The position numbers and the translations under genes are program-made. The notes below the pieces were generated by a model that was not told where the DNA came from, searched no databases, and worked only from the letters and a program-made list of their open reading frames with translations. This document shows positions 12,408 to 41,775 of a stretch of DNA of 64,000 nucleotides, piece after piece. Source of the stretch: a virus; IMG/VR virus record IMGVR_UViG_3300025009_000051, positions 64,001 to 128,000 of that record. The stretch is one strand, 5' to 3'. The first letter of the stretch is position 1. Each line of letters starts with the position of its first letter.

Positions 12408-12479
12408 GTTGAAAATATATACAAATTAAATTTAAAAAACAAGAAATTTTATATTTATAATAAAAGAAATAGAATTTTT

Positions 12480-14213
12480 ATGAAAACAATGCTTCAAGCA
12501 ATACCTTATCCAGAATATACAACGACTCAAAGAGATGCGCTTACAGGTGTTATAAATAATTTCAGAATAAATAATACGACTACCGGCACTGTTCAAAAAT
12601 ATTATAATGGAAGTTGGACAGAAGACGACGGAAATAACATTTATTCTATACCAGAAGACACTTTAGAATTTTGGGATGATAGTCAGACAGATGCAGGAAA
12701 TGAATATTTAATGATACCGAGAATTACAAGAAATCCAAATAATGGAATGTTAATTACTTGTTATGGAATATATTCTTCTCATACTACTTCTACTCAATAT
12801 TTCTTTTTAAGACAGTCAACAGATAATGGTAAGACATGGACTGGATTATATGGAACCGGAACTCAGACAAGAATTGTTACAACAGATTATGGTAGAAATT
12901 GGACTGCAATGTTTACACAGACCGGAAGATTATTGATATTTTATCAATATCGAACTTCGCCGGATGTAACAGCAACAAAATCAAAGGTATTATATACAGA
13001 TGATGTTGGATTAACTTGGTCAGAACCATATGAAATTGTAAACCCGGACATACCAGATATTATATATCAACCATATTTATTTGATAATAAAGCAATATAT
13101 AATGATTTGGGAAATTTAGTTACTCCTTATTGGGTTAGAATTTCAGAAGTCGGAAGATGTGCAGTATGTTTAGCAGAAAGCGCCGATAATGGTGAAACAT
13201 GGGATCCGGATTATTCTGTTGCATTTATTAATGATACGGGTGATATGAAAGAATTTGGAGAACAATCTATGGTTGATTGTGGAAATGGTATTTTTATAAT
13301 GATTATGAGACTTTCAGCATATGAAAATCCAGATGGAGATAATGTACCTGTTATCATGACATCAAAAGACTATGGTAGAACTTGGGCGGACGGCACAGAA
13401 ACACTCACTCAAACAAATATTAATGATAAAGATTATTTAAGCGGATATGCTTATTTAGAAGGAGTAGGTGTGACAATGGGAACAGTAGTAAATTCATGTT
13501 CGGTATTGCCTCAAATGAATATTATTGAAATAAATAACGAAAAATGGTTGACGATAGATTATTGGATTAGAAACAATGGAGTAGAAGTTCAAACCTGGAA
13601 ATTAACTTTGATTAATTTAAGAGAATTTTTATTAGATGGTGTAGATTCAATAAAAACTGATAATGAATATTTACCATATATTATTAATACTTATACTGAT
13701 AATACTGCGGGATATAAAAATGGAGGAAATGGATGTAGCGTTGTAATTAATAATGAATTATTATTAACAAATTATAATCAATCTACATCCTATAGCGAAG
13801 GAGGAACAACTGAATTATCTTATTCTTATATTAGTAGCAATATTATTAATAAAATGATGTCTGCATATTATTCAACAGGAATAAATGTAAATAAAGAAAT
13901 TACTTTTAATGCCACCGAATCAATTCTCGATTATTCAAAATCTAATAATGCTTCTATTACTCTAACTGCTGACCTTGATTTGCTAACAATAAATAATATT
14001 CCTAATCAAGGTGGAGGAGATATTTTTGTATTGCAAGATGGAACCGGAGGATGGATAATATCTGCAGTAGAAAATGAAGATTTGACTACTAAATACATAG
14101 ATGGAACTCCTCCTATAAGTGGAAGTATAAATACTGAACCAAATGGTTATTCGGTTATTAGTTTTAAAAGATTTAATTCTAATTTATTTGTTACGTATGG
14201 TAAATTTATCTAA
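12480..14213 (+). CDS. Probable receptor-binding protein with an Asp-box (BNR/sialidase-like) beta-propeller
   Basis: Four Asp-boxes (STDNGKTW, TDDVGLTW, SADNGETW, SKDYGRTW); fibre-like N- and C-terminal domains; TATATTTATA upstream. Confidence 0.7.
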   Translation: MKTMLQAIPYPEYTTTQRDALTGVINNFRINNTTTGTVQKYYNGSWTEDDGNNIYSIPEDTLEFWDDSQTDAGNEYLMIPRITRNPNNGMLITCYGIYSSHTTSTQYFFLRQSTDNGKTWTGLYGTGTQTRIVTTDYGRNWTAMFTQTGRLLIFYQYRTSPDVTATKSKVLYTDDVGLTWSEPYEIVNPDIPDIIYQPYLFDNKAIYNDLGNLVTPYWVRISEVGRCAVCLAESADNGETWDPDYSVAFINDTGDMKEFGEQSMVDCGNGIFIMIMRLSAYENPDGDNVPVIMTSKDYGRTWADGTETLTQTNINDKDYLSGYAYLEGVGVTMGTVVNSCSVLPQMNIIEINNEKWLTIDYWIRNNGVEVQTWKLTLINLREFLLDGVDSIKTDNEYLPYIINTYTDNTAGYKNGGNGCSVVINNELLLTNYNQSTSYSEGGTTELSYSYISSNIINKMMSAYYSTGINVNKEITFNATESILDYSKSNNASITLTADLDLLTINNIPNQGGGDIFVLQDGTGGWIISAVENEDLTTKYIDGTPPISGSINTEPNGYSVISFKRFNSNLFVTYGKFI

Positions 14214-15734: not shown

Positions 15735-17354
15735 ATGAAGTCAATAATACAATCTATATCATATCCTGAATTTACAACTGCAAGTAGAAATGCTTATGTA
15801 GCTGCTACACCGCCACCGGTTAATTTCATTATAAAAAATACAGATTATAATAGATTAGAAAAATGGGATGGAACATATTGGAAAGAAGTGCATAAAACTT
15901 CATTGAAATCTGATTATGAAACACAAAGAGAATTAGCAAATGCCAATGAATTAGACTTTTATGATACAACAAAAGAAATATTAACAATTGCATCTGGAAG
16001 TTTAGGTAATGTTGAATCTTTTACTGAAGCTTATGCGAGATATAGCACAACTCATTTTGGAGACCCGCATGCAATAATTTATCTTAGAGGGCATTTATAT
16101 ATTGGAACAAGGCAAATGCCAGCAAGATTGGCAAAAATAAATGTGAGGGATTTTACTGATTCTACAATTATAACTTTTCCTGGTTCTAATGCTTTATCAT
16201 TATATTCTATTATTGAAACAATTACTTATTCAGAACATACAGATAAATTATATGTTGCATTTTCAGATCCAATAGATGATGGAAGAAAAATAAGAGTTGC
16301 TGAAATTGATCCTGTAGATTTATCATATGAAATAGTAATTGAAGAAACATCTTCAGATTATCAAGCAGGGGTTTGTAAATGTATTGCTAAGAATGATAAA
16401 TTATATGTGGTTACTGCATATGGAACAAAAAAAGTTGTAGAATATGATTTAAATAATTATACAATTTCAAATGAAATAAATATTCCGGTCACAGGAATTG
16501 AAGTTGTTTCATCTGTTGCAATTGATAGTGGTTCATTGTATTTGGCAGAAGTATATGGAGATGCAGCAGTAAAAAAATTAGATTTAGATTCTTTTACCTT
16601 TACAGATAATTACGCATTACCTACCAATGCTTTGGCGAGTAATTTAGTTGTCGTTGGAGATTATGTTTGGGCTTCTTCTTTAAATTCTTTGGATGCGGGA
16701 GCAGATACAAATAGAGGGATTTATAGATTAAATAAAAATGATTTTGCAGATTATATTCATTTATATGTTGAGGATTTAGACGATGCTTGGGGAATGTTGT
16801 ATGATGGGAAATATTTGTGGTGTCCAATGAAAGCTTCTCCTGTAAAATTGTTAAGAGTAAATCCAAATACATTAGAAATAAATTCTGTTACTCTACCAAC
16901 CGGACAAAATAAATTTAATAAATTGGCGACAGATGGAGTTTCATTATTTTTTACAACTTTTGAAAATCCTTGCAATTTAATTAAATTACAAGATACATTT
17001 AGATATGATGAAACATATTTTGCAGATTCTAATTTTGGAGTACCATTTAAAATAGATCATATTTCCGGTTCAATATATTTTGCAGGAAATTTATATGTTT
17101 CTGGTTCTAACTATTTATCTGGTTCCAACTATTTATCGGGTTCAAATTACATGGATGGAACAAACATTATTTCTGGATCTAACTATTTAAATGGTCCGCT
17201 ATATATAAACAATCAAGAATTAGATATTATAAATCCAAATAATAACGATATTATAGCATATAATTCTTCTACCCAAAAATGGGAACATACAACGGTAGAA
17301 GCCGTTACAGGATTAAGTGCGAGTTTCGTAATAGCAATGGCAGCTGCATTATAA
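15735..17354 (+). CDS. Probable receptor-binding/tail fibre protein with a beta-propeller and GSNYLS repeats
   Basis: N-terminal ~45 aa resembles the 12480 gene; propeller-like repeats (YDGKYLW, TDGVSLF); hexapeptide repeats. Confidence 0.6.
   Translation: MKSIIQSISYPEFTTASRNAYVAATPPPVNFIIKNTDYNRLEKWDGTYWKEVHKTSLKSDYETQRELANANELDFYDTTKEILTIASGSLGNVESFTEAYARYSTTHFGDPHAIIYLRGHLYIGTRQMPARLAKINVRDFTDSTIITFPGSNALSLYSIIETITYSEHTDKLYVAFSDPIDDGRKIRVAEIDPVDLSYEIVIEETSSDYQAGVCKCIAKNDKLYVVTAYGTKKVVEYDLNNYTISNEINIPVTGIEVVSSVAIDSGSLYLAEVYGDAAVKKLDLDSFTFTDNYALPTNALASNLVVVGDYVWASSLNSLDAGADTNRGIYRLNKNDFADYIHLYVEDLDDAWGMLYDGKYLWCPMKASPVKLLRVNPNTLEINSVTLPTGQNKFNKLATDGVSLFFTTFENPCNLIKLQDTFRYDETYFADSNFGVPFKIDHISGSIYFAGNLYVSGSNYLSGSNYLSGSNYMDGTNIISGSNYLNGPLYINNQELDIINPNNNDIIAYNSSTQKWEHTTVEAVTGLSASFVIAMAAAL
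17100..17195 (+). repeat. About five 18-bp coding repeats (SGSNYL)
   Basis: tctggttctaactattta tctggttccaactattta tcgggttcaaattacatg ... Confidence 0.8.
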
Positions 17355-17378
17355 AAAAAATAAAATAAAAATTAATTT

Positions 17379-18062
17379 ATGAAAATATTAGTAGGCAAAG
17401 ATATAGGTTCTTATACATTTACTCCAGCATCTGGAAACATAACTCTATCTGGTTTGGAGACAATAAACCTTGAGGATCTGGTTTTAATCACAAACGCCAC
17501 CTCCGGCAGTATTATATATAATTTTGCTTCTCCTACTCAAGGAGGGTCTATATCAAGCAATGTAATTACACTTGAAACAAATACATCTGCAATGTATTCA
17601 ACAGATAATTTACAAATTTTAGTTGAATATGGAGAACCACATATAGATTTTGATATCGGAGCAATGAAAGTATCTGATATATCTCCTTTATATAATAGAT
17701 ATACAGATGTAGAAACTCTTGTATCTGCTCAAAATTTAACAAGCTCATATGCAGATTATGGTGCTGAAATAGATATGAGAGGATACACTCATTTAGGTAT
17801 TTTTGTGGTTGTAGATGCAAACGATAGTCAAGATGCATATATGAAAGCACTTGGAAAACATACAGAAAGTGGAACAGAAGAATTTATTATAGATGGAATT
17901 GGAGAAATTGTTTTATGGGAGAGTAGTTCATTAGATTTCAATAAATATTGGGAATTTGATACAGGTGTAATTCCATACATACAATTACAAGCATATGCGA
18001 CCACAGTTGGAGTGACTCCTGGAGATCTAACAATTTATATTACTAAATATTATAGACCGTAA
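17379..18062 (+). CDS. Probable virion structural protein
   Basis: Beta-rich (SYTFTPASG...LVLITNATSGSIIYNFA); within the appendage operon. Confidence 0.5.
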   Translation: MKILVGKDIGSYTFTPASGNITLSGLETINLEDLVLITNATSGSIIYNFASPTQGGSISSNVITLETNTSAMYSTDNLQILVEYGEPHIDFDIGAMKVSDISPLYNRYTDVETLVSAQNLTSSYADYGAEIDMRGYTHLGIFVVVDANDSQDAYMKALGKHTESGTEEFIIDGIGEIVLWESSSLDFNKYWEFDTGVIPYIQLQAYATTVGVTPGDLTIYITKYYRP

Positions 18063-22073: not shown

Positions 22074-22328
22074 AAATGAATAAGGTGCACCAGATCTATG
22101 TCGGAAGCACTGTTAAATTTACTTAATTCTACATATACAAAAAATGTCATTAATAGATCAGACGATAGTAATATAATTCAATATTTAGATAATAGTAATG
22201 TTCTTCAATATCAAGAAATAAGTTAAAAAAAATAATTATTAATTATATATTACATATGTGTAGGTTTTTTATAAAATTTATTTGTTTTTTTAAAAAAATT
22301 TTAATATATTTCTCAAAATTATTTAATC

Positions 22329-22964
22329 ATGCAAAATGATCCAATTATAAACATTCTAACAAGAACTGCAAGTAGACCAAATTATTTTAGACATTGCAGA
22401 GAAAGCATTTTAAATCAAACCTATTGTAATACTAATCATATATTAGGAATTGATGATATTAAAAGTTTAGATTATATTGATGAATATTATTATTCAAATG
22501 ATAATATTGTAAGATTAGACAGACAAACAAAACAAAATATAAATCACGCTCCTTATAATTTGTATCTTAATACCATGTTAAGAATTGTAAAAGATGGATG
22601 GGTGATTATATTAGATGACGATGATAAATTTATGAAAAATGATGCTTTAGAAATTCTTGTTCCATATATGAATAATGAAAGAAATTTATTATTGTGGAAA
22701 GTACAATTTCCTGGTTATACTATTCCTGGAGCCGCTTATTTTGGAATGAGACCAGTTAGTTGCAACATCAGTATGATTGGATTTTGTTTTCATATTAGTC
22801 AATTAAACAATACAAAATTTAATGATGCTCAAACCGGAGATTTCACATTTATAAATGAACTATATAATAAATTAAATCCTGTTTGGATTAATGACATTTT
22901 AACAGGATTGCAAAGAACAAATTCTGCAGGTGGATTTGGAAGTTTAATAGATTTACAAGAATAA
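22329..22964 (+). CDS. GT2-like glycosyltransferase
   Basis: NILTRT..RP, GWVIILDDDD. Confidence 0.75.
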   Translation: MQNDPIINILTRTASRPNYFRHCRESILNQTYCNTNHILGIDDIKSLDYIDEYYYSNDNIVRLDRQTKQNINHAPYNLYLNTMLRIVKDGWVIILDDDDKFMKNDALEILVPYMNNERNLLLWKVQFPGYTIPGAAYFGMRPVSCNISMIGFCFHISQLNNTKFNDAQTGDFTFINELYNKLNPVWINDILTGLQRTNSAGGFGSLIDLQE

Positions 22965-22977
22965 AAAAATATTTGTT

Positions 22978-23586
22978 ATGTCGATAAATGAAATACCAAA
23001 ATTTTGTATAAATTTAGAAGAGAGAAAAGATAGATGGAATTCTTTTCTTATTCAAAAAGATAACTATCCATTTTTATCTAATACAGAAAGATTTAATGCA
23101 ATAAAGCATGCAAGAGGAGCAGAAGGATGCAAATTGTCATATTTAACTTTGTTTGATCATTGCATTCAAAATAATATCAACGAAGTATTAATTTTAGAAG
23201 ATGATGTTTTATTTTTAAATGATGTAGAAAATACATTACAATTGGCAATAAACCAACTTCCAGAAAATTGGGATTTATTATATCTTGGTTTAAATACACA
23301 TAAAAAATTAGATAGATATTCTGATAATTTATTTAAAGTTAAAAGTTCTTTTGCGACCCATGCTATATTATATAATAATAGAAATAATGTAATGAATTAT
23401 ATAATAGAAAAAAAAGATTCTTGCCCAGTTATAGATGTATTTTATTCTAATGAAATTCAACCTAAATTTCAATGTTTTACCGTCTATCCAATTATAGCCA
23501 CTCAAAATAATTCTTATTCTGATATAGAAAAAAAAGTTATAAATATGAATTTTATTGTTGATCGATTTTATACCAATACACGATGA
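22978..23586 (+). CDS. GT25-like glycosyltransferase
   Basis: CINLEERKDRW, GCKLS, LILEDDV, WDLLYLG, ATHA. Confidence 0.8.
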   Translation: MSINEIPKFCINLEERKDRWNSFLIQKDNYPFLSNTERFNAIKHARGAEGCKLSYLTLFDHCIQNNINEVLILEDDVLFLNDVENTLQLAINQLPENWDLLYLGLNTHKKLDRYSDNLFKVKSSFATHAILYNNRNNVMNYIIEKKDSCPVIDVFYSNEIQPKFQCFTVYPIIATQNNSYSDIEKKVINMNFIVDRFYTNTR

Positions 23587-24365
23587 TAGGATGTAATTTA
23601 AAAGGCGGATTATGCAATATGATGTTTCAAATTGCAACATTAGAATATATTTCTAAAAATTACAATATACCTATAACCTACCCAAACACAGATATTAATT
23701 TAAGAGATATTTCAAATGCGTATGGAAACAATGCAATTGAATACAAAAATATGTTTAAGAATTTTCATTGGAACAATGTTTACATGCAAAATCAAAGAAC
23801 AAAACAATTCCCATTTGAATATTCAGAAGAAATAAAAATACCAATCGAGGATATATTTTATGATGGATTTTTTCAATCAGAAAAATATTTTAATTGTGAT
23901 AAAAATTTTGTATATAATCTGTTTGAACCTGCAGATTTCATAAAAGAAAAATTAAATAGTTTTAAAAAATTATTTAAAGATAAAACAACTTGTTCAATTC
24001 ATGTAAGAAGAGGAGATTATTTAAAATATCCAGATATTCATAATACCCAACCAATAGAATATTATTTAAAAGGAATGAATATAATACCAGTTGACAAATA
24101 CATTATATTCAGTGATGATATTAATTGGTGCAAAAATTATTTTATAGGAGAACAATTTGTGTTCATAGAAAATGAAAAAGATTATGTAGAATTATTTTTA
24201 ATGTCTGTTTGTAATCACAATATTATTTCAAATAGTTCTTTCGGATGGTGGGGAGCATATTTAAATCAAAACATAGAAAAAAAGGTGATAGGACCAATAA
24301 AATGGTTCGAAAACAATACTTATAATAATAAAGATATAATTCCAGAAGCATGGATTCAAATTTAA
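23583..24365 (+). CDS. GT11 alpha-1,2-fucosyltransferase family
   Basis: GGLCNMMFQ, SIHVRRGDY, IISNSSFGWWGAYL. Confidence 0.9.
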   Translation: MIGCNLKGGLCNMMFQIATLEYISKNYNIPITYPNTDINLRDISNAYGNNAIEYKNMFKNFHWNNVYMQNQRTKQFPFEYSEEIKIPIEDIFYDGFFQSEKYFNCDKNFVYNLFEPADFIKEKLNSFKKLFKDKTTCSIHVRRGDYLKYPDIHNTQPIEYYLKGMNIIPVDKYIIFSDDINWCKNYFIGEQFVFIENEKDYVELFLMSVCNHNIISNSSFGWWGAYLNQNIEKKVIGPIKWFENNTYNNKDIIPEAWIQI

Positions 24366-25237
24366 ATATAATACAATTAACAAAATCTAATTCTTTTGAT
24401 TATGATGATATATTTAAGAATTCTTATAATCTAATAAAAAAAAGAAATAAATTAGATTTAAATGTAATAATTCCAGTTCGTGGAAGAAAAGAATTTTTAA
24501 AACCGTTGCTGCATTATTTTATAGAAGCTAAAAAAAATACTTCAAAAAAAATATCATTCACAGTAGTTGAAGATTCACCAGGAAAAGAACATGAAGAAAC
24601 TTGTAAGGAATTTAAGGTAAATTATATTTGGTTAAAATCTAATAAAATATTTAATAAATGTTTAGCACATAATATTGGAGTTTTATTTTCATCTAAATCT
24701 AAATATTTAATGTTTCATGATTTAGATTGTTTGGTACAAAAAGATTTTTTTATAAATGTATTTGAAAATATAAAACAAAAAGAATTGATTGCAATACAAT
24801 GTTTTAATAAAAGAAGAGTATTATATTGCAATGAAAAATTGACTAATTCATTAATAGAATTAAAAACAAATATAAACGATGTCAATATTAATCATCCAGA
24901 TATAAATTTATTTGAAAATGGCAAAGCTCCTGGAGGATCGATTTTATTAAATCGAGAAACATTTTTTAATATTGGAGGATATGATCCAGAATTATTTAAT
25001 GGGTATTCTCCAGAAGATTCTTTCTTCTGGGAAAAGATTGAGACCCTAACCAAAATTGGCAGCTGTGATTCTCCAATTGTAGAAATATTTCATATGCATC
25101 ACCCCCCTTCATATTTTAGAAAGGATGAGGCATTAACTAAAATGCATAAAATAGATAGATTGTATAGAATATCAAAAATGGAAAATAAATTAGAAATTTT
25201 AAAATATAAATCAGATTTAATTAAAAAATATGAATAA
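24350..25237 (+). CDS. GT2/GT7-like galactosyltransferase-type glycosyltransferase
   Basis: VIIPVRGR, FNKCLAHNIG, MFHDLD, GGYD..F.GYSPED. Confidence 0.8.
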   Translation: MDSNLNIIQLTKSNSFDYDDIFKNSYNLIKKRNKLDLNVIIPVRGRKEFLKPLLHYFIEAKKNTSKKISFTVVEDSPGKEHEETCKEFKVNYIWLKSNKIFNKCLAHNIGVLFSSKSKYLMFHDLDCLVQKDFFINVFENIKQKELIAIQCFNKRRVLYCNEKLTNSLIELKTNINDVNINHPDINLFENGKAPGGSILLNRETFFNIGGYDPELFNGYSPEDSFFWEKIETLTKIGSCDSPIVEIFHMHHPPSYFRKDEALTKMHKIDRLYRISKMENKLEILKYKSDLIKKYE

Positions 25238-25847
25238 ATATTTTGATAAAGCATATTGTATTAATTTAAATAAAAGAATTGATAGATGGAACAAAGCTCA
25301 GCAAGAATTTAACAAATATAATTTAGTTGTTGAAAGATTTCCTGCAATTGAAGGAAATATTCAAAATTTAGAAACTGAAATACTACCTGGAAATATAGGA
25401 TGCGTAAACAGTCATTTAAATATAATAAAAAATGCTAGAAAAAATAATTATAAAAGTGTAGCTGTTTTTGAAGATGATGTCGAATTTAAAGAAGATGTTT
25501 TAGAAAAATTTGAAGAATATTATAAACAACTTCCAGAAAATTGGGATATGATTTATTTTGGGGGCAATCACAATGATAGAGAAGGAGAGAATACATTAAT
25601 TAAAATATCGGATAATATTTATAAAGTGACTAAAACTTATACCACGCATGCTTATATTATTAAAAACACCGTGTATGATGAGGTAATAAAATTATTTTCT
25701 AAATATGAACATGAAGTAGATGTATTATATTCTGAATTGCAATTGAAATTTAATTGTTATGTTTTCAGACCTCATTTGGCGTGGCAAAGAGCAGACTTTA
25801 GTGATATAATGAATACATATGCAGATTATACTTCAATATTAAAATAA
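25230..25847 (+). CDS. GT25-like glycosyltransferase (paralog of 22978)
   Basis: CINLNKRIDRW, GCVNSH, VFEDDV, WDMIYFGG, TTHAY. Confidence 0.85.
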   Translation: MNKYFDKAYCINLNKRIDRWNKAQQEFNKYNLVVERFPAIEGNIQNLETEILPGNIGCVNSHLNIIKNARKNNYKSVAVFEDDVEFKEDVLEKFEEYYKQLPENWDMIYFGGNHNDREGENTLIKISDNIYKVTKTYTTHAYIIKNTVYDEVIKLFSKYEHEVDVLYSELQLKFNCYVFRPHLAWQRADFSDIMNTYADYTSILK

Positions 25848-25854
25848 ATATATT

Positions 25855-26457
25855 ATGGATTTAATTCAATTAGAAAAATGGAAAGAAGATAATGGAGACC
25901 AAACTCATAGAATTCAATATGATCTAAATGAATTGTCTACTATAATTGATGTCGGAGGATATAAAGGAGAATGGACCAAATTAATGAGTTCTATTTATAA
26001 GTGCAACATATATACATTTGAGCCAGTTAAAAAGTTCTACGATGAAATGATAATTAATTTATACATGCATGAAAAAATTCATACTTTTAATTTTGGATTT
26101 TCACCTAAAACAGAATATAAAACAATTTATTTAGATGATGATTCTACGTCGTTGTTTGCTCCTTCAAGATATATAAATATTATTCAATTAATAGAATTTA
26201 AAGAATTCTTTATATCTAAGAATTTTCAAACAATAGATTTAATGAAAATTAACATTGAAGGAGAAGAATTTGATTTAATGGATCATATCATAGAAAATAA
26301 TTTACATTTAAAGATAAAAAACTTTCAAATTCAATTTCATGACTGGATGCCGCATGCCGAATATAGAAGACAACAAATATTAGATAAATTATTATTGACT
26401 CATTATCCTACATATCAATATAAATTTGTTTGGGAAAATTATAAATTAAAAGAATAA
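25855..26457 (+). CDS. FkbM-family SAM methyltransferase
   Basis: IIDVGGYKG, YTFEP, IDLMKINIEGEE. Confidence 0.85.
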   Translation: MDLIQLEKWKEDNGDQTHRIQYDLNELSTIIDVGGYKGEWTKLMSSIYKCNIYTFEPVKKFYDEMIINLYMHEKIHTFNFGFSPKTEYKTIYLDDDSTSLFAPSRYINIIQLIEFKEFFISKNFQTIDLMKINIEGEEFDLMDHIIENNLHLKIKNFQIQFHDWMPHAEYRRQQILDKLLLTHYPTYQYKFVWENYKLKE

Positions 26458-26461
26458 AAAA

Positions 26462-26878
26462 ATGGAAAAAATATATTCGAAGATAGAACCAAATAAATTA
26501 CTTCATATAATTTTTAGAAAAGAAGATTTTAAAAGTGGTAGAACAAATTTAATAGATGAAATGGAATTTATTCAATGTTCAGCCTTAAATTTGGTTATTG
26601 GAACAACCTTTAAGCCTCACAAACATATTGAAAGAAATATAACTTTCTCAAATCATATAGCACAAGAAAGTTGGTGTATAATACAAGGTTCAGTGAAATG
26701 TATTTTCTATGATTTAAATGATGAAATTTTAGAAACTCCAATATTAAATGCAGGAGATACATCATTTACGCTTCGCGGCGGCCATACCTATGAAATTTTG
26801 GAAGACGATACGTTAGTCATGGAATATAAAGTAGGGCCTTATTTCGGTCAACAATTAGATAAAATATTTATACAATAA
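26462..26878 (+). CDS. Cupin-fold protein (WbuC-like)
   Basis: PHKH...ESW.IIQG...GGHTYEILEDDTLVMEYKVGPY. Confidence 0.7.
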   Translation: MEKIYSKIEPNKLLHIIFRKEDFKSGRTNLIDEMEFIQCSALNLVIGTTFKPHKHIERNITFSNHIAQESWCIIQGSVKCIFYDLNDEILETPILNAGDTSFTLRGGHTYEILEDDTLVMEYKVGPYFGQQLDKIFIQ

Positions 26879-26881
26879 ACA

Positions 26882-27178
26882 ATGAAAGAAAAAATATTAG
26901 AATATATTAAAGAAAAATATGGAAATCCAATTACAAAAGTACATCAATCACATTGTATGTTTCCAGGTGAAGATTGCTCTTGTCGAAATGTAGAAGAAAT
27001 TACATATGATACCTCTTTAATTCATGGTGGATATGTAGATTCATTAAGTATGGTGCATGTATTAATAATGATTGAAACTCTTTTTAATATTGAAATTCCT
27101 GTAAAAGAATCAATACCAGAAAATTTTGATACTGTAAATAAGATGGTAGAATTGATAAATAGAATAAAAAATGGATAA
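26882..27178 (+). CDS. acpP: Acyl carrier protein
   Basis: GYVDSL phosphopantetheine site; IETLFNIEIP; F.TV..MVELI. Confidence 0.8.
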   Translation: MKEKILEYIKEKYGNPITKVHQSHCMFPGEDCSCRNVEEITYDTSLIHGGYVDSLSMVHVLIMIETLFNIEIPVKESIPENFDTVNKMVELINRIKNG

Positions 27179-28034
27179 ATTAAAAATAGTTATATATTCT
27201 ACATGCCAAGGCAGGGGGTTAGAAACATTTTTAATGCTCCATAAAAAATTTGTTAGTCAATATACGTTTGTGCAAACAATTTTAAATTATTCTTTTTTAC
27301 ATGAAAAAAAAATAATAATAGAAAATAATGTAATGCTTAATAATATAAAAAATGCTGATATTTTTATATATCAACCATTAGATGATATTTATGGTAAAAA
27401 TGCTACAAATTATGTAAAAACATTTTTAAAAGAAACTTGCATTGCAATATCTATACCTTATGTTTATAACACAAGTTTTTGGCCTCTAATAGTTGGAATA
27501 AAAGGAGACACGACAGACGATTGGTCTGCATTAGATAATTACAAGCATGTAATTGAAAACACTGATATATTAGATAATTTAATAAAACTTGGGCATTCTA
27601 AAGATACTATTTTAAATCTATATGATAATAATGAAATAAATTTTAATTATGATATTAGACATAGAGTTAATATGAATATTTTGAAAAATAAAGAAGAAAC
27701 GATAGATATAAAAATGCATGATTTTATTAATGATAATTTAAAAACAAAAAGATTATTTTTATATCATAGTCATCCTACTTCTTCTGTCTTTATTCATATG
27801 GCAAATCAAATTTTAAATATTCTTAATTTAGAACCTTTAGAAGAACATTCTAATATTGATTTAACAAATTTACAATCTGGAACTGTAATGCCAGGTATTT
27901 CTCCCGCTTTAATGGCATTCCCAAGCTCAGCTATTAGACATTTCGGTTTTGAATTTGAAACTCCACAATATGAAGCAATAGCAAATAATTTCTTTAGACA
28001 TACAATATTGACATATTTAAATAATAAAAGATGA
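27171..28034 (+). CDS. WcbI-like polysaccharide biosynthesis protein
   Basis: STCQG, ADIFIYQP, LFLYHSHPT motifs. Confidence 0.65.
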   Translation: MDKLKIVIYSTCQGRGLETFLMLHKKFVSQYTFVQTILNYSFLHEKKIIIENNVMLNNIKNADIFIYQPLDDIYGKNATNYVKTFLKETCIAISIPYVYNTSFWPLIVGIKGDTTDDWSALDNYKHVIENTDILDNLIKLGHSKDTILNLYDNNEINFNYDIRHRVNMNILKNKEETIDIKMHDFINDNLKTKRLFLYHSHPTSSVFIHMANQILNILNLEPLEEHSNIDLTNLQSGTVMPGISPALMAFPSSAIRHFGFEFETPQYEAIANNFFRHTILTYLNNKR

Positions 28035-28960
28035 ATTATACAAAAATAATAGGAACTGGTATTTGCCTACCAGAAGTTTATATAACTAATGACGATTTAA
28101 TAAATAAGTTTAAATTAGATACAACCAATGAATGGATTGTAGAAAATACTAATATTCGACAAAGATATATTTGTAAAGATGGAGAAACATCTACTTCTTT
28201 AGGTTGCACTGCCGTAAAACAAGCTATAGAAAATGCAAATTTAAAAAATGAAGATATTGATATGTTAATTGTAGCCACAACTTCTCCAGATAAAGTTTCT
28301 CCTTCTACAGCCTGTTTAATAAAAGATGAATTAAAATTAGAAAAGGCAATTGCATTTGATATTGCCGCAGTTTGTAGTGGATTTTTATTTGGTATGTCTG
28401 TCGCAGAAAAATATATATCTTCTGGAATGTGTAAAAATATAGTGGTTGTAGGTGTAGATAGGTTTTCAAAGATAACAGATTGGAATCATAAACATAGTAT
28501 CTTTTTTGGAGATGGAGCTGGAGCCGCAGTTTTATCACAATCTAAAACGAAGGGATTTCATGGTTTTACTTTATATTCTGAGAGTGAAAATAAAATTGGA
28601 TTTGAATGTGAATTTAATGAAACATATAAAATGAATACAAAGATGGTTTATGAAGCAGCAATCAAAACAATGCCAATTGCAATCGAAGATGTATTAAATA
28701 ATGAAAATATGAGTATCGATGATATAGATTATTTAATACCTCATCAACCAAGTATTAGAATATTAAAAGAAGTAGCAAAAAGAATAAATATGCCAGAAGA
28801 AAAAGTAATGATGAATATGGATAAATATGCTAATACAGTTTCTGGAACAATTCCTATTCTATTACATGAAACTTGGAGTAAATTAAAACCGGGAGACAAA
28901 ATATTATTTGCTGCTATTGGTTCGGGTTGGACTTATGGTGCGGCTTTATATGAATTTTAA
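28031..28960 (+). CDS. fabH: 3-oxoacyl-ACP synthase III
   Basis: Cys-His-Asn triad (AAVCSG, PHQPS, YANT), FGDGAGA, GSGWTYGA. Confidence 0.92.
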   Translation: MNYTKIIGTGICLPEVYITNDDLINKFKLDTTNEWIVENTNIRQRYICKDGETSTSLGCTAVKQAIENANLKNEDIDMLIVATTSPDKVSPSTACLIKDELKLEKAIAFDIAAVCSGFLFGMSVAEKYISSGMCKNIVVVGVDRFSKITDWNHKHSIFFGDGAGAAVLSQSKTKGFHGFTLYSESENKIGFECEFNETYKMNTKMVYEAAIKTMPIAIEDVLNNENMSIDDIDYLIPHQPSIRILKEVAKRINMPEEKVMMNMDKYANTVSGTIPILLHETWSKLKPGDKILFAAIGSGWTYGAALYEF

Positions 28961-28971
28961 ATAAATTTATT

Positions 28972-29496
28972 ATGAATTTTAAATCAATTGGAGAAGATGT
29001 AAGAATTGATCCAACAGCACAAATAACACGACCAGAATTGATAGAAATTGGTAATCATGTTTCCATTGATATGTGCGTTTATTTTTCTACAGGAGCAAAG
29101 ATAGGAGATTACATTCATATAGCCCCACAAGTCAGTATTATCGGTGGCGCAAAGTCGCGATTAATTATGGAAAATTTTAGTGCTATTGCAACCGGTTCAA
29201 GAATTATATGTGCAAGTGATGATTTCACTCAAGGTTTTCTTTGTCCATTTATTCCTATAGAATTTAGAAATGTAATTAATAAACCAATTACATTTAAAAA
29301 ATATTCTGCATTGGGAGTAAATTCAGTGGTAATGCCAGGAGTAACTCTTGCAGAAGGATCTGTTGTAGGTGCAAATTCAGTCTTAACTCAAGATACAGAA
29401 CCTTGGATGATTTATGTTGGTTCTCCTGCAAGGGCGATTAAAATGAGAGATTCAAAATTAATTTTAGAAGGAGCCAAAAAATTAGGATATGATTGA
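28972..29496 (+). CDS. Left-handed beta-helix (hexapeptide repeat) acyltransferase
   Basis: IGNHVSI...IGDYIHI...GVTLAEGSVVGANS...PWMIYVGSPA. Confidence 0.85.
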   Translation: MNFKSIGEDVRIDPTAQITRPELIEIGNHVSIDMCVYFSTGAKIGDYIHIAPQVSIIGGAKSRLIMENFSAIATGSRIICASDDFTQGFLCPFIPIEFRNVINKPITFKKYSALGVNSVVMPGVTLAEGSVVGANSVLTQDTEPWMIYVGSPARAIKMRDSKLILEGAKKLGYD

Positions 29497-30265
29497 ATTA
29501 TTTAATACTTGGGGGCCAACCTATTTTTTAGAATATAATAAAGATGTAAATGTATTTGTAGATACTATTGGAAAGGTAGAATCAAATAAAAAAAATATCT
29601 TTGTTATTCTTGAACCATTTAACAAATTTTTTATTGATAAAATTAATAAAAATGATTTTGATTTTATTCTTACATATTTCCAAGAAATAATTGATTCTAT
29701 TCCAAATGCAAGATTATTTAATCCATCAAATACTTGGGTGCATCATTATACTTTTCCAACAAAAGAATTTTCAGTTTCTACATTGGTAGGAGGAAAAAAT
29801 ATTCATAATTTATCTGGATATGCTAAACGACACGAGTTGTGGAATAGGCAAAATGAAATAATAATTCCAAAGAAATTTTATTTGAGTAGTGCCAGTAAAT
29901 TGAATAATATTAATTATAGTAATCAGTTAGTATTATACAAATATAAAGAACCGCTATTTGATAGTCAATTTCACATAGTGATAGAAAACGAAACGATGTT
30001 AAATATGTGGTCAGAAAAAATTATAGATTGCTTTCAAACTAAAACTATACCGATATATGTTGGGTGTAAAAATATTGAAAATTTCTTTAATATTGATGGA
30101 ATAATAAAGGTAGAATCCGTTTCAGATATCATTTTAGCGTGTAATGAATTAACGCCGACTTTTTATAAATCTAAAGAAAAAGCATTGAAAGAAAATTTAA
30201 AAATATCAAATAATTATTTGAGTTTTGACAAACAATTAATAAATAAATTAAACGAAATTTTATGA
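29489..30265 (+). CDS. GT10 (alpha-1,3-fucosyltransferase)-like protein
   Basis: FHIVIENE...WSEKIIDCF...TIPIYVG matches the GT10 C-terminal motif. Confidence 0.75.
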   Translation: MIELFNTWGPTYFLEYNKDVNVFVDTIGKVESNKKNIFVILEPFNKFFIDKINKNDFDFILTYFQEIIDSIPNARLFNPSNTWVHHYTFPTKEFSVSTLVGGKNIHNLSGYAKRHELWNRQNEIIIPKKFYLSSASKLNNINYSNQLVLYKYKEPLFDSQFHIVIENETMLNMWSEKIIDCFQTKTIPIYVGCKNIENFFNIDGIIKVESVSDIILACNELTPTFYKSKEKALKENLKISNNYLSFDKQLINKLNEIL

Positions 30266-31329
30266 GCAGAATAGTACAATACTCACCAGTAATAGAAAAA
30301 AAATATATTCGTTCTGTCACCAAACAATTAAAAAGTGGTTGGCTTGGACCTGGAGAAACAACTAAAAAAGTAGAAGAAGAGCTATGTAAAATGACAGGAA
30401 ATAAATATTGTGTTGCAACCACCTCTGGAACCTCCGCATTAATAATGGCTATTCTATCTTTAAATATTCCTAAAGACAAAATAATTTTATTACCTGCATA
30501 TACTTTTATAGCTCCGCACAATGCAGCTAAATTTCTTGGATATAAAATTAGATTGATAGATGTCGATCCAAATACAATGTGCATGGATTATGGTGAATTA
30601 TTAAAGATATATTCTAAACATAAAAATAGCATTGGAGCAATTATTTTTGTAAATCATAATTCATATGCAGAAGGAGAATATTCAAAAATAGTAGATTTTT
30701 GTAACCGATATTCTACTCCCATAATTTCAGATGCATCTCAAGCATTGGGAAATATAAAAGCATTTAAAGGAACGGTTTCAGTAATTAGTTTTTCAGTGCC
30801 AAAAATAGCTACCTGTGGACAAGGCGGTGCAGTAGTAACAAATGATGAAAACATATATTTAGAATTAAAGAAAATACAAGATCATGGAGACGATTGGAGG
30901 AAAGATAGAATACATAAAAATTTAGGTGTTAATTTTAAATTTAATGATATATTAGCATCATATCTTTTACCACAATTAAAAGATATAAATAAATTGATAT
31001 TTAAAAGAGATATGATATTCTCTTGGTATCAAATATATTTGAAAAAAAATATAGTTACATATGGCATGGATTCAACTTGGATGGTTATTTATAAAACTAA
31101 AAAAATCCAACAGATTATAAAAGAATTAGAAGAAAATAACATACAATCCGTTCAATACTATAAACCTATTTCTTGGAATCCTCCATATTATACATCAGAG
31201 TTATTTGTTAATTCTGAAAAAATATATCAAGAATATTTATATTTACCAAGTAGTTTATCATTGACAAAAAATCAAATAAAAAGAATTTGTAGAATAATTT
31301 TAAAAATAGAAAATGGACAAAAAAATTAA
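30262..31329 (+). CDS. DegT/DnrJ/EryC1/StrS PLP aminotransferase (perosamine synthase-like)
   Basis: SGTSAL, PAYTFIA, ISDASQA, SFSVPK (PLP lysine), GQGGAVVT. Confidence 0.9.
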   Translation: MSRIVQYSPVIEKKYIRSVTKQLKSGWLGPGETTKKVEEELCKMTGNKYCVATTSGTSALIMAILSLNIPKDKIILLPAYTFIAPHNAAKFLGYKIRLIDVDPNTMCMDYGELLKIYSKHKNSIGAIIFVNHNSYAEGEYSKIVDFCNRYSTPIISDASQALGNIKAFKGTVSVISFSVPKIATCGQGGAVVTNDENIYLELKKIQDHGDDWRKDRIHKNLGVNFKFNDILASYLLPQLKDINKLIFKRDMIFSWYQIYLKKNIVTYGMDSTWMVIYKTKKIQQIIKELEENNIQSVQYYKPISWNPPYYTSELFVNSEKIYQEYLYLPSSLSLTKNQIKRICRIILKIENGQKN

Positions 31330-32296
31330 AAGTCTTATCATAGGAATATCTGGACAAGATGGAAGTTATCTTTCAGAATATTTATTATCTCTCGATCATG
31401 AAGTGTATGGTATTGTTAGACGGCATTCAGTTGCAGAAAACCAACAATATAGATTAGAAAATATAAAAGAAAATATTCATGTGTTTTATGGAGATTTATT
31501 AGATATTTCTTCTATAGAAAAGGTATTGAGAGAAGTAATGCCAGATTTCATATTTAATTTGGGGGCAATGAGCCATGTGAAAATATCATTTGAAATACCA
31601 TTATTTACTGCGCAGACAAATGCTCTTGGAGTTTTAAGTCTGTTGGAATCTTATAGAACTATTTGCCCAAATGCTAAATTTTACCAAGCTTCAAGTAGCG
31701 AGATGTTCGGATTATCTGTAGATGAAGATATGTATCAAAGAGAAACAACTCCAATGAATCCAACTTCACCTTATGGTATTTCAAAAGTTTTTGCATATAA
31801 TATGGTAAGACATTATCGTAGAGCATATGGATTACATGCAGTAAATGGTATATTGTTTAATCATGAAAGTCCAAGAAGAGGAAGTAATTTTGTGACCAGT
31901 AAAATTATTAAAGGAGCATGTATGATAAAACTCGGAATGCAACCAAATTTAGAATTAGGAAATTTAGATTCATTTCGTGATTGGGGGCATTCATATGACT
32001 ATGTTAGGGGAATGTATAAAATCATAAATCATTCTACTCCAGACGATTTTGTAATTAGTACAATGCAAACTCATTCAGTCAGAGATTTTTGTGAAATAGC
32101 ATTTAAAAGTTTAGATTTAGATTATAAAGATTATGTTGTTCAAAATCCAAAGTATATGAGAGCTGAAGAATTACCCTATTTAAGAGGAGATTCAACAAAA
32201 GCAAGAACAGTATTAGGATGGAAGCCAGAATATACTTTTGAAACAATGATACAGGAAATGGTCAATCATTGGCTACATATTTTGCAGAAAAATTAA
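31313..32296 (+). CDS. gmd: GDP-mannose 4,6-dehydratase
   Basis: GISGQDGSYL, QASSSEMFG, SPYGISK, LFNHESPRRG, RDWGH. Confidence 0.96.
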   Translation: MDKKIKSLIIGISGQDGSYLSEYLLSLDHEVYGIVRRHSVAENQQYRLENIKENIHVFYGDLLDISSIEKVLREVMPDFIFNLGAMSHVKISFEIPLFTAQTNALGVLSLLESYRTICPNAKFYQASSSEMFGLSVDEDMYQRETTPMNPTSPYGISKVFAYNMVRHYRRAYGLHAVNGILFNHESPRRGSNFVTSKIIKGACMIKLGMQPNLELGNLDSFRDWGHSYDYVRGMYKIINHSTPDDFVISTMQTHSVRDFCEIAFKSLDLDYKDYVVQNPKYMRAEELPYLRGDSTKARTVLGWKPEYTFETMIQEMVNHWLHILQKN

Positions 32297-32345
32297 AGAT
32301 TTTTTAAAAAATTTTATATTTATTGTAAATATAAACAATAATCAA

Positions 32346-32900
32346 ATGGCGTATCAACTATATTTAGATAAATCCAAACTATTCGAATGCGACATTAAAT
32401 TAAATGGCGCTTCCATAAAAAATACCACTGCAAGACTTGTATTAGAAAATTCTGATTATAATATCATGTTCTATGGTAAAGTAGATTCAGAGGGAAAATG
32501 TTCTATCCCAATCAAAAAATTAAAGACTTTAATTGAAGAAAAGGAAACAGGAAATATAAAATTAGAAGTAATTGCAGAAGAAACTTATTTCATTCCTTGG
32601 CAAGATACATTTGAAGTATTAACCAGTAAATCCGTTCAAGTAGAAATAAAAAATATTGAAAAACCAGTTGTAGAAGAAAAGAAAGTATCGGTTCAAGTAA
32701 AAGATGATTATAAAATAGATTATATAAGTTTGTTATCTGAAAAGATTACTTCTATGGGATTAAATTATAAAATGATTTCTGAGAATAAAAAACCTGTGTA
32801 TAATATCATGAAACAATATTTTGATTCGTTGAATATATCTGTTAATTTGAAAAAAGAATTCAATGAATTAATGAGAAATTTGAAAAGTCATAAAAAATAA
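32346..32900 (+). CDS. Hypothetical protein, possibly structural
   Basis: TATATTTATT upstream; beta-rich N-terminus. Confidence 0.5.
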   Translation: MAYQLYLDKSKLFECDIKLNGASIKNTTARLVLENSDYNIMFYGKVDSEGKCSIPIKKLKTLIEEKETGNIKLEVIAEETYFIPWQDTFEVLTSKSVQVEIKNIEKPVVEEKKVSVQVKDDYKIDYISLLSEKITSMGLNYKMISENKKPVYNIMKQYFDSLNISVNLKKEFNELMRNLKSHKK

Positions 32901-32942: not shown

Positions 32943-32970
32943 AGTCCTTTAGAAATAGAGGACTTTTTGT
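32943..32970 (+). terminator. Probable intrinsic terminator
   Basis: agtcct...aggact stem followed by a T-run. Confidence 0.6.
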
Positions 32971-33068: not shown

Positions 33069-33099
33069 TTTGTTTATTCAAAAAAAATCACTATATTTG
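33069..33099 (+). promoter_or_regulatory. Bacteroidota sigma-A type promoter
   Basis: TTTG-N19-TATATTTG. Confidence 0.8.
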
Positions 33100-33123
33100 T
33101 TTATAAATTTTAAAAAAATAATT

Positions 33124-33705
33124 ATGAAAACACTAAAAAAGATTAAATTTATTCTTATATTTTTGTTTCTTTTTCCGCTATATATTCACCAAACTCCAGT
33201 TTTTTCTGAAAGTGTATATAAATATAATGTGCTAAAAGATCGTTTAAAATATGAGTTTATATATAACAGAATAATACAAAAAATCAAGGAACATGAGACC
33301 TTTAGTGGAGTAAGATATCATACTGGCATAGATACAGATGGTTGGACAATTGGATATGGACACAAAATAAAAGCTACAGATAATATTCCAGATACAATAT
33401 CAGAGGAATATGCAGATAGTTTATTAATAAAAGATTTTGAAGGTGCTATAAGAATGGTAAAATTTTATACTCCAATTTTAAATAAAGAAGAAAATAAATA
33501 TAAGATGTTAGCAATGAGTCATTTTGTATTTGCTAAAGGAATTGGAAATTTTAATAAGAGTAAATTGAAACAATTAGTAGAAGAGGAAAAACCAATAGAT
33601 AAAGAAATACTGAAATGGATAGTGGTTAGAAAAGATGGAGTTATTAAATATAATCAAAGAATGTTAAAGAATAGATTATTAGAAATAGAAATTTATAACT
33701 TATAG
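33124..33705 (+). CDS. GH24-type lysozyme with an N-terminal hydrophobic anchor (start corrected to 33124)
   Basis: KEHE...DTDGWTIGYGH, A..LL.KD, AMSHFVF..GIGNF, R..E. Confidence 0.8.
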   Translation: MKTLKKIKFILIFLFLFPLYIHQTPVFSESVYKYNVLKDRLKYEFIYNRIIQKIKEHETFSGVRYHTGIDTDGWTIGYGHKIKATDNIPDTISEEYADSLLIKDFEGAIRMVKFYTPILNKEENKYKMLAMSHFVFAKGIGNFNKSKLKQLVEEEKPIDKEILKWIVVRKDGVIKYNQRMLKNRLLEIEIYNL

Positions 33706-40614: not shown

Positions 40615-41775
40615 ATGAATATAGATCATCAATACATTGAATTATTAAAAGATATTTTAGAAAATGGAATTAAAAAAGAAGTTAGAACCGGAGTAGGTAC
40701 TCTTTCTGTTTTTGGTAGACAACTCCGACATGATATGAAAGAAGGGTTCCCATTAATTACAACTAAAAAAATGTATTGGGGAGGAATTGTAACTGAATTA
40801 CTTTGGTTCTTGAGAGGAGACACAGATATCAGGTATTTATGGAAAAATAATTGTCATATTTGGGATGGAGATTGGTATAAAGCATATTCTAAATCTTGTT
40901 CTACTCCTTATTCATTAAAAGAAATGATTGAATTTGGATTAGAATGGGAAACAAATACAAGATTTTTTCATAAATCTGTTTGGGAGCTCGGTCCAATTTA
41001 TGGGAAGCAATGGCGGAGTTGGAGTAAGCCGGATCTACTATCAATAGACCAAATCCAACATTTAATCAATACCCTTAAAACAAATCCGGATTCTAGAAGA
41101 TTAATGGTTAATGCTTGGAATGTAGGAGAATTAGATGAAATGGTTCTTCCACCCTGCCATTATGGATTTCAAGTTTATACAAGAGAATTGAGTATAGTTG
41201 AAATGATACGAATTGCCAAATATAAGGATGAACAAATTCTAATAAATCAACGAAAAGAAAGAATAAATGAAATTAGTGAACAACTATTAAAAGATAATAT
41301 TCCAACACGAGCAATCTCTTTAATGTGGAATCAAAGATCGGTAGATACATTTTTAAGACTTCCTTTCAATATTGCTTCATATGGTTTATTACTTGAGATT
41401 ATTGCTAAAGAAGTGAACATGATTCCAGATCAATTAATTGGAAATTTAGGAGATACACATTTATATTTAAATCATATTGAACAAGCTAAAGAACAAATTG
41501 GTCGAGAATTAAGTTGGCCAGAAAGAATTGATAAAATGTATGAAATAAATAAAGACATGGCTAAAAATATATCAGACCAATGGGCGCTAAATCATGCATT
41601 CCTAGATGATTTAAATATTCCTAAAAGAACAAGAGAACCACTTCCATTACCTAAATTAGATAAGTTACCAGAATATTTCCTTAGGGGTTCAGATTGGAGC
41701 TGCTATGAACCAAAAGATATTAAATTATTAAATTACAAATCTCATCCTGAAATTAAAGCACCATTAAATAATTAA
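40615..41775 (+). CDS. thyA: Thymidylate synthase
   Basis: RTGVGT, ELLWFLRG, GPIYGKQWR, SRRLMVNAWN, catalytic LPPCH, RSVD..PFNIASY, GDTHLY. Confidence 0.95.
   Translation: MNIDHQYIELLKDILENGIKKEVRTGVGTLSVFGRQLRHDMKEGFPLITTKKMYWGGIVTELLWFLRGDTDIRYLWKNNCHIWDGDWYKAYSKSCSTPYSLKEMIEFGLEWETNTRFFHKSVWELGPIYGKQWRSWSKPDLLSIDQIQHLINTLKTNPDSRRLMVNAWNVGELDEMVLPPCHYGFQVYTRELSIVEMIRIAKYKDEQILINQRKERINEISEQLLKDNIPTRAISLMWNQRSVDTFLRLPFNIASYGLLLEIIAKEVNMIPDQLIGNLGDTHLYLNHIEQAKEQIGRELSWPERIDKMYEINKDMAKNISDQWALNHAFLDDLNIPKRTREPLPLPKLDKLPEYFLRGSDWSCYEPKDIKLLNYKSHPEIKAPLNN

Follow-up and report, generated by a model that had tools for sequence, protein, structure and literature searches.

A phage operon predicted to build a glycan with an N-acylated amino-6-deoxyhexose

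Main

GDP-perosamine (GDP, guanosine diphosphate) is made by Gmd together with Per/RfbE and is N-acetylated by PerB in Escherichia coli O157 and Caulobacter; Vibrio cholerae O1 instead uses an acyl carrier protein (ACP)-dependent tetronate acylation. In anthrose synthesis by Bacillus cereus, the N-acyltransferase AntD (PDB entry 3vbn) reportedly acylates a 4-amino-4,6-dideoxyhexose at its C4 amine with a 3-hydroxy-3-methylbutanoyl group. In Pseudomonas syringae pv. tabaci the viosamine island comprises vioA, vioM, vioT, vioS, vioB, vioR and acp, and its mutants show that an N-(3-hydroxybutanoyl)-2-O-methyl 4-amino-4,6-dideoxyhexose caps the flagellin glycan (PMC3927599). Among viruses, Mimivirus (fibril sugars), chloroviruses (GMD) and mycobacteriophages (virion glycosylation; Freeman et al. 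2023, as cited in PMC12619734) own nucleotide-sugar enzymes and soluble glycosyltransferases, and the virion is the target in the cases tested. Here we describe a 14-gene operon on the + strand at positions 22329-32296 of a 64,000-nucleotide stretch (the window), which is bases 64001-128000 of the 183.7-kb IMG/VR virus record IMGVR_UViG_3300025009_000051. From its gene content we predict, with a probability of about 65%, that the operon encodes a phage route to a glycan carrying an N-acylated amino-6-deoxyhexose. Nine sugar and acyl genes form the 3′ half of the operon:

25855-26457, + strand: FkbM-family methyltransferase (PF05050 32.8 bits and TIGR01444 45.7 bits, both above cut-off)
26462-26878, + strand: WbuC-like cupin metalloprotein, candidate GDP-keto-sugar isomerase or epimerase (TIGR04366 37.2 bits, below the 42-bit cut-off)
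26882-27178, + strand: ACP with an H-x3-C-x6-C-x-C insertion (PF00550 21.5 bits, cut-off 20.8)
27171-28034, + strand: WcbI-family protein, a coenzyme A (CoA)-binding putative acyl- or acetyltransferase (PF18588 77.6 bits, cut-off 29.2)
28031-28960, + strand: FabH, β-ketoacyl-ACP synthase III (KAS III) (NF006829 327 bits)
28972-29496, + strand: AntD-like left-handed β-helix (LbH) N-acyltransferase (PF00132 53 bits)
29489-30265, + strand: GT10-like GT-B glycosyltransferase, candidate GDP-sugar transferase (PF00852 E 0.004; 17.2 bits, below the 23.9-bit cut-off)
30262-31329, + strand: DegT-family pyridoxal phosphate (PLP) aminotransferase, perosamine-synthase-like (PF01041 202 bits), overlapping Gmd by 17 nt
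31313-32296, + strand: GDP-mannose 4,6-dehydratase, Gmd (PF16363 370 bits)

Like the GDP-perosamine pathways, the operon places Gmd beside a DegT-type aminotransferase, with N-acylation predicted to follow. Those pathways, however, use other acyl donors, have neither a cupin nor FabH, and feed O-antigens through membrane assembly machinery that is absent at the island. AntD (B. cereus and B. anthracis; 3vbi-3vbp), the closest solved relative of the LbH over its full length, works on a nucleotide-linked 4-amino-4,6-dideoxyhexose, whose C4 amine receives a short 3-hydroxyacyl group, and anthrose is also 2-O-methylated. AntD differs in that its sugar is linked to deoxythymidine diphosphate (dTDP), its donor is a CoA thioester from leucine catabolism, and the ant operon has neither FabH nor ACP.

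The viosamine island, to which a preliminary description of the window had likened the locus, does match it function for function: aminotransferase, KAS III, dedicated ACP, acyltransferase, methyltransferase and glycosyltransferase lie in one cluster in both (PMC3927599). Its relative, the flagellin glycosylation island of P. aeruginosa PAK, is likewise close. The viosamine island is bacterial and its sugar (viosamine) derives from dTDP-glucose, whereas the phage route is GDP-mannose-based via Gmd. Its VioR reductase is essential, whereas no such reductase occurs in the DNA searched; genome-wide negatives here and below cover 184 kb of a 292-kb genome. Its acyltransferase is of the VioB/PglD type, whereas the LbH of the window matches VioB at 2e-5 and AntD at 1.7e-28. 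It has no cupin and no WcbI, and its target is flagellin. A search of the literature turned up sugar genes of phages and giant viruses, and broad comments on the glycosyltransferases that large Bacteroidota phages carry; it yielded neither a FabH/ACP acyl-supply module nor a cupin-DegT-Gmd core in the virus glycan pathways described. Bacteria are known to have sugar-tailoring modules of this kind; here the setting is new, the sugar is GDP- rather than dTDP-linked, and there are additional parts (a cupin, a WcbI and a modified ACP).

Sugar-forming enzymes

In PDB searches, Gmd matches true GMD structures at 2e-87, against 1e-40 for GDP-heptose dehydratase, an assignment that we rejected on this comparison, and 2e-36 for GDP-4-keto-6-deoxymannose reductase (2pk3). 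Its GxxGxxG, Ser-Glu, YxxxK and NHESPRRG motifs are intact (catalytic residues and metal motifs were read straight from the protein sequences throughout). Gmd is the sole enzyme with a short-chain dehydrogenase/reductase (SDR) fold found in the 184 kb, so the only visible consumer of its product is DegT.

The DegT protein has the Schiff-base Lys181 (in SFSVPK) and Asp158, and is therefore assigned as a transaminase; a ColD-type dehydratase was rejected because residue 181 is Lys and not His. Its homologues are 42-57% identical, and all those that carry a name are called perosamine synthetase (automatic JGI names). Action at C4 of GDP-4-keto-6-deoxymannose is predicted chiefly from the adjacency to Gmd.

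The cupin belongs to a family of at least 4869 proteins that are 62-72% identical, its close homologues being named WbuC-family by JGI. It has the metal motif HxH..E plus a further H. A PDB sequence search with it gave no match. A structure model bears out the cupin fold; Foldseek found no significant match to this model, and VIA-align placed it among cupins with no decisive neighbour, nucleotide-sugar cupins being nearest but weakly (WbcA, Z 8.4).

Acyl supply and transfer

FabH matches housekeeping FabH structures at 3e-71 and has the triad Cys115/His238/Asn268. We considered a KAS III-like direct sugar O-acyltransferase of the CerJ type and rejected it, because the Cys-His-Asn triad is complete and the protein scores as a housekeeping FabH. 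The LbH begins 11 nt after FabH. Its best PDB matches are 3vbi-3vbp (E 1.7e-28, residues 2-164 against 31-193 of 205), and the next best is at 2e-10.

The conserved coupling of these two genes ties FabH to N-acylation. In the 26 related loci that encode both, the LbH follows within ~30 nt in 17; one FabG-like SDR gene of ~650 nt lies between them in 7, and they are further apart in 2. FabH without LbH was found in three loci, all on contigs of 2-3.6 kb. LbH proteins adjoining FabH are 53-76% identical to that of the window (median 64%), as against 25-59% (median 44%, n = 56) in cassettes without FabH, so the window LbH is assigned by sequence to a distinct FabH-linked subtype. Because of this adjacency and this subtype, and independently of WcbI or ACP, FabH is linked to N-acylation, which argues that FabH makes the group that the LbH transfers. 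The FabH-linked subtype also gives indirect support to a 3-hydroxyacyl or 3-oxoacyl thioester as a candidate donor. Acylation with the phage's own FabH, as the preliminary description had proposed, is supported both by the coupling across the 26 loci and by the AntD-like LbH.

The ACP carries its phosphopantetheine serine in a DSL motif (residue 55). The Cys/His insertion lies ahead of this motif (residues ~18-36, window 26921-26989) and looks like a small metal-binding, zinc-knuckle-like element. It is kept in the only homologue found, from the huge phage LR756502 (locus L047, 16219-16518; 47% identity); phmmer over 4055 small open reading frames (ORFs) from all fetched loci gave no further copy. 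An 87-residue ORF after FabH in a complete related phage (L001, below) was tried as a candidate and is not an ACP.

WcbI matches 4bqn in the PDB at 2e-5. For Burkholderia pseudomallei WcbI, binding of CoA and acetyl-CoA was shown, no activity could be demonstrated, and a partner was proposed (PMC4104973). WcbI homologues elsewhere often adjoin Gmd and GT11 genes. The FkbM homologues of related cassettes lie between cupin and FabH.

The assignment of the GT10-like protein, made in the preliminary description, finds support in its modelled fold. By sequence, PF00852 is passed by 4 of 13 homologues, and a PDB search gave no match. An AlphaFold model built with 12 homologues (predicted local distance difference test (pLDDT) score 80) had as its top Foldseek matches the Helicobacter α-1,3-fucosyltransferase 2nzw (7e-7), human FUT9 and plant FUT13, all GT10, at a TM-score of ~0.52. 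The modelled fold points to a GDP-sugar donor.

Related viral cassettes

Related loci were collected by searches for WcbI, LbH and cupin homologues. The viral set holds 71 loci of at least 12 kb, and the metagenome set, which partly overlaps it, 45 loci of at least 8 kb. The cupin is encoded on at least 394 IMG/VR contigs and on over 578 metagenome contigs. The trio of cupin, DegT-type gene and Gmd occurs in 68-69 of the 71 viral and 43-44 of the 45 metagenome loci. Counted singly, the viral loci hold Gmd in 68, a short DegT-like gene in 69, LbH in 41, GT11 in 36, the GT10-like gene in 36, FabH in 15, FkbM in 12 and a FabG-like SDR in 9; the metagenome loci give the same picture.

The recurrent order is GT25-GT11-GT2-GT25-cupin-LbH-GT10-like-DegT-like-Gmd, from which we conclude that glycosyltransferases and sugar genes travel together. 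Many viral contigs repeat these genes in this order, so the nine-gene run is not a chance grouping. The window operon belongs to a large, so far unstudied family of viral cassettes, of which it is an elaborate example. Its peculiarities are a DegT of full length where relatives mostly have the short form, and an ACP and a WcbI gene inserted between cupin and FabH.

Two relatives found through WcbI illustrate the variation. L001, a complete 340-kb phage, has the order GT2, cupin, WcbI, FabH, ..., methyltransferase, ..., FabG-like SDR, LbH, DegT-like, Gmd; L002, a viral contig, has cupin, LbH, DegT-like, Gmd, WcbI, ..., GT10. LbH homologues led to huge-phage records such as LR756511, with a contiguous cupin-LbH-DegT-Gmd, and LR756502, the source of the second ACP. 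Within the phage genome collection the cupin was found only in the uncultured LR756511 and in no isolate, and a megablast of the island against that collection gave no match. Single-sequence scans of IMG/VR with FabH and WcbI gave no match either; alignment-based scans were needed to find homologues.

The FabH matches that tblastn returned from the phage collection were rejected as sugar modules, consisting only of unannotated Listeria, Staphylococcus, Enterococcus and gut records and three Helicobacter phage records. Several are housekeeping-like (28-39% identity: OR846837, OR846827, OR849884, OR844991, OR846615 and MT83xxxx gut 'Bacteriophage sp.' fragments). These records look like host-like DNA rather than phage sugar modules.

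The short DegT-like protein before Gmd has ~196-200 residues (typically L117, 10433-11023; also L001, 18608-19465; L002, 8321-9016; and L047, 17361-17951). It keeps the context of the PLP lysine, lacks ~80 internal residues and the entire C-terminal domain, and is 60-75% identical among viral loci. In LR756502 (L047, 14065-15516) the LbH is apparently fused to an N-terminal SDR (epimerase/dehydratase) domain in a 483-residue ORF, followed by a DUF1796-like gene and then by the ACP homologue. The L001 cassette is interrupted by an MT-A70 methyltransferase gene and two CapR/DUF723 zinc-finger genes (12105-12680 and 15883-17606), which resemble homing endonucleases; the surrounding sugar genes are intact. 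In some cassettes a PhyH-type dioxygenase separates LbH from the short DegT (L117, 9526-10443), and these also have a second Gmd and a fucose-synthase-like SDR downstream (L117, 11025-13911). Sulfotransferase genes adjoin the cassettes of two relatives (L002, 4149-5030; L046, 10934-11608), which hints at sulfation of some of these viral glycans.

Operon layout and flanking genes

The nine genes are intact and translationally coupled on the + strand, with gaps of -17 to +11 nt, and form the single tight run that the preliminary description had recognized. The coordinates given in that description start at 25855; the true start of the island is at 22329, and five glycosyltransferase genes, coupled just as tightly, form the 5′ half of the operon, behind the host-type promoter that the preliminary description had also placed there:

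22281-22312, + strand: host-type promoter (Bacteroidota -33/-7-like), TTTG-N20-TATATTTC, ending 17 nt before the first ATG
22329-22964, + strand: GT2 glycosyltransferase (PF00535 above cut-off)
22978-23586, + strand: GT25 glycosyltransferase (PF01755 above cut-off)
23583-24365, + strand: GT11 glycosyltransferase (PF01531 above cut-off)
24350-25237, + strand: GT2 glycosyltransferase (PF10111 above cut-off)
25230-25847, + strand: GT25 glycosyltransferase (PF01755 above cut-off)

The GT25-GT11-GT2-GT25 block lies upstream of the cupin in related viral contigs too. Eight intergenic sites of the form TTTGTT-N-TATATTTG/C occur in the window, and this promoter, which is real, is among them; the late-type motif TATATTTAT(A/T) is absent from the + strand within the operon. 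The promoter type by itself hints at early expression.

Tail-fibre-like genes directly precede the operon, and one further gene follows it:

32346-32900, next after the operon: 184-residue gene of a phage-only family, with an immunoglobulin (Ig)-like N-terminal part

This gene is preceded by its own late-type TATATTTAT motif at 32315 and followed by a terminator-like hairpin at 32943-32964. Its own motif and its phage-only Ig-like family ruled it out as a member of the pathway. The TTG start listed for the lysozyme gene (33070; region 33069-33124) falls within another host-type promoter site (33069-33099), and the true start is probably an ATG ~25 nt past that site. Other genes of the window encode a phage major head protein, a helicase and homing endonucleases. 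The thymidylate synthase gene (40615-41775) encodes 386 residues, against ~264-316 in relatives, to which it aligns in two or three separate stretches; it therefore carries insertions.

The 183.7-kb record has a G+C content of ~25% and an estimated completeness of 79%, and a contig of 292,100 bases also carries the same proteins. The source fits a large uncultured phage with a Bacteroidota-type host, the latter because the intergenic promoter sites fit the Bacteroidota -33/-7 type.

Proposed pathway and alternatives

The gene identities, intact catalytic residues, operon structure and conserved FabH-LbH linkage described above underlie the pathway that we propose. We infer its substrates, order of steps and acyl chain as follows. 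Gmd would convert host GDP-mannose into GDP-4-keto-6-deoxymannose, which the WbuC-like cupin may isomerize or epimerize. DegT would then aminate the keto-sugar to a GDP-amino-6-deoxyhexose, most simply GDP-perosamine. FabH would condense a short acyl-CoA with malonyl-ACP on the phage ACP, priming and loading being done by host enzymes, and the AntD-like LbH would move the resulting 3-oxoacyl group (3-hydroxyacyl if host FabG acts first) to the sugar amine. FkbM would put an O-methyl group on the sugar; WcbI might add a further O-acyl group or help to handle the thioester. In the cytoplasm, the five upstream soluble glycosyltransferases would build a glycan to which the GT10-like enzyme transfers the sugar.

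Several observations weigh against this pathway. An ACP of the window kind is absent from 24 of the 26 related FabH-LbH cassettes, so the ACP may not be essential to acylation, and the donor of AntD is acyl-CoA, not acyl-ACP. The 184 kb searched contain neither the ACP-priming phosphopantetheinyl transferase (PF01648) nor FabD, no sugar-1-phosphate nucleotidyltransferase (ManC) or other genes of GDP-mannose synthesis, and no FabG-type reductase (no adh_short_C2 match and no SDR besides Gmd). A priming enzyme is also absent from the complete L001 genome and from three other relatives. Because these genes are absent, priming, malonyl loading and GDP-mannose must be supplied by the host. The lack of a FabG, already remarked on in the preliminary description, holds for the DNA searched; L001 and 7 other related cassettes do have a FabG-like SDR, in some of them between FabH and LbH. 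Most FabH-LbH cassettes (17 of 26) lack this SDR, so the absence of a reductase is probably genuine rather than due to incomplete assembly, and the acyl group would either stay 3-oxo or be reduced on the carrier by host FabG. On the sugar side, the perosamine synthetases 3bn1 and 3dr4 match DegT at 3e-25 but aminotransferases acting on uridine diphosphate (UDP)- or dTDP-sugars are equally close, and the cupin may alter the product.

The last point carries the main alternative for the sugar, namely the same pathway with the cupin acting as a 3,4-ketoisomerase or as a 3- or 3,5-epimerase on GDP-4-keto-6-deoxymannose, so that the amine sits at C3 (mycosamine-like) or the product is an epimeric 4-amino-6-deoxyhexose. 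We consider this somewhat unlikely. The cupin is nearly inseparable from Gmd and a DegT-type gene (68 of 71 viral loci), its conservation across thousands of proteins suggests a constrained enzyme, its His/Glu metal-binding motif is intact, and its structural neighbours include, besides the GDP-sugar 3-epimerase WbcA, the 3,4-ketoisomerases FdtD and HCAN_0198 (Z 6.8-7.6) and RmlC. These fold scores, however, are no better than those against unrelated cupins, no activity is known for any WbuC-family member, and the LbH is far nearer to AntD, a C4-amine enzyme, than to the C3-amine enzyme QdtC (2.3e-9). A true Gmd supports the GDP-mannose-based route of the preliminary description; its choice of perosamine is not secured, because the conserved cupin may change the sugar.

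Two separate modules could also share the operon, the LbH N-acetylating with acetyl-CoA in the manner of PerB while ACP, WcbI and FabH serve an O-acyl decoration, a small polyketide or a lipid. Translational coupling of ACP, WcbI and FabH as a block would suit such a division, as would the 56 loci that have an LbH without FabH and a CoA-binding putative acyltransferase, WcbI, with no known partner (PMC4104973). The idea is nevertheless improbable, given that the LbH directly follows FabH (or one SDR gene after it) in the great majority of cassettes that hold both, most of them without ACP and WcbI, that the window LbH belongs to the FabH-linked subtype, and that its closest solved relative uses a C5 3-hydroxyacyl donor and not acetyl.

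Target of the glycan

No membrane segment was found in the 15 proteins examined at the island, which has no flippase, polymerase, ligase or polyprenyl-phosphate transferase. Direct glycosylation of virion proteins, known from mycobacteriophages, fits these soluble enzymes, the lack of membrane assembly genes and the tail-fibre-like genes just upstream, and we give it slightly less than even odds. Host envelope glycans are a more tentative candidate; a lipid-linked glycan of the host also fits, because the promoter is host-type and the glycosyltransferase families are of the lipopolysaccharide (LPS) type. Around four related cassettes, PHROGs detected further glycan genes but nothing structural, and so gave no clue to the target; matches to the capsid gene of the window in three related loci were discarded as mere ~50-residue segments.

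DNA as the target, a possibility raised in the preliminary description, with the glycan on hypermodified bases rather than on protein or envelope glycans, is unlikely, and we give it very little credence. Some phage glycosyltransferases do hypermodify DNA (Pyle et al. 2024, as cited in PMC12619734), but GT2, GT25, GT11 and GT10-like enzymes are oligosaccharide and LPS assembly families, the sole gene of the thymidylate-synthase family encodes a true thymidylate synthase (1e-66), and no hydroxymethylase was seen.

Discussion

Should the prediction hold, large phages would go beyond taking over individual sugar genes: they would encode everything needed to make an acylated, methylated amino-sugar glycan, with a fatty-acid-type acyl supply of their own. 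The operon offers a concrete and cheap set of enzymes for in vitro work, and a way into the function of WbuC cupins, a family that is often annotated yet uncharacterized. A bolder extension, which we regard as unlikely on present evidence, is that hundreds of uncultured aquatic phages coat their virions with an acylated amino-deoxyhexose glycan of their own, made through an uncharacterized WbuC-like cupin acting on a GDP-keto-sugar and, in most relatives, through a DegT-like protein of 196-200 residues that keeps its lysine, the acyl group in the present phage passing through a private ACP with a zinc-knuckle-like insertion.

Uncultured viruses of freshwater and marine habitats widely carry the cupin-DegT-Gmd core together with conserved glycosyltransferases, while FabH, reductase, LbH and methyltransferase are optional. 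This core marks out a family of viral glycans for which virion shielding, adhesion and change of the host surface are candidate roles.

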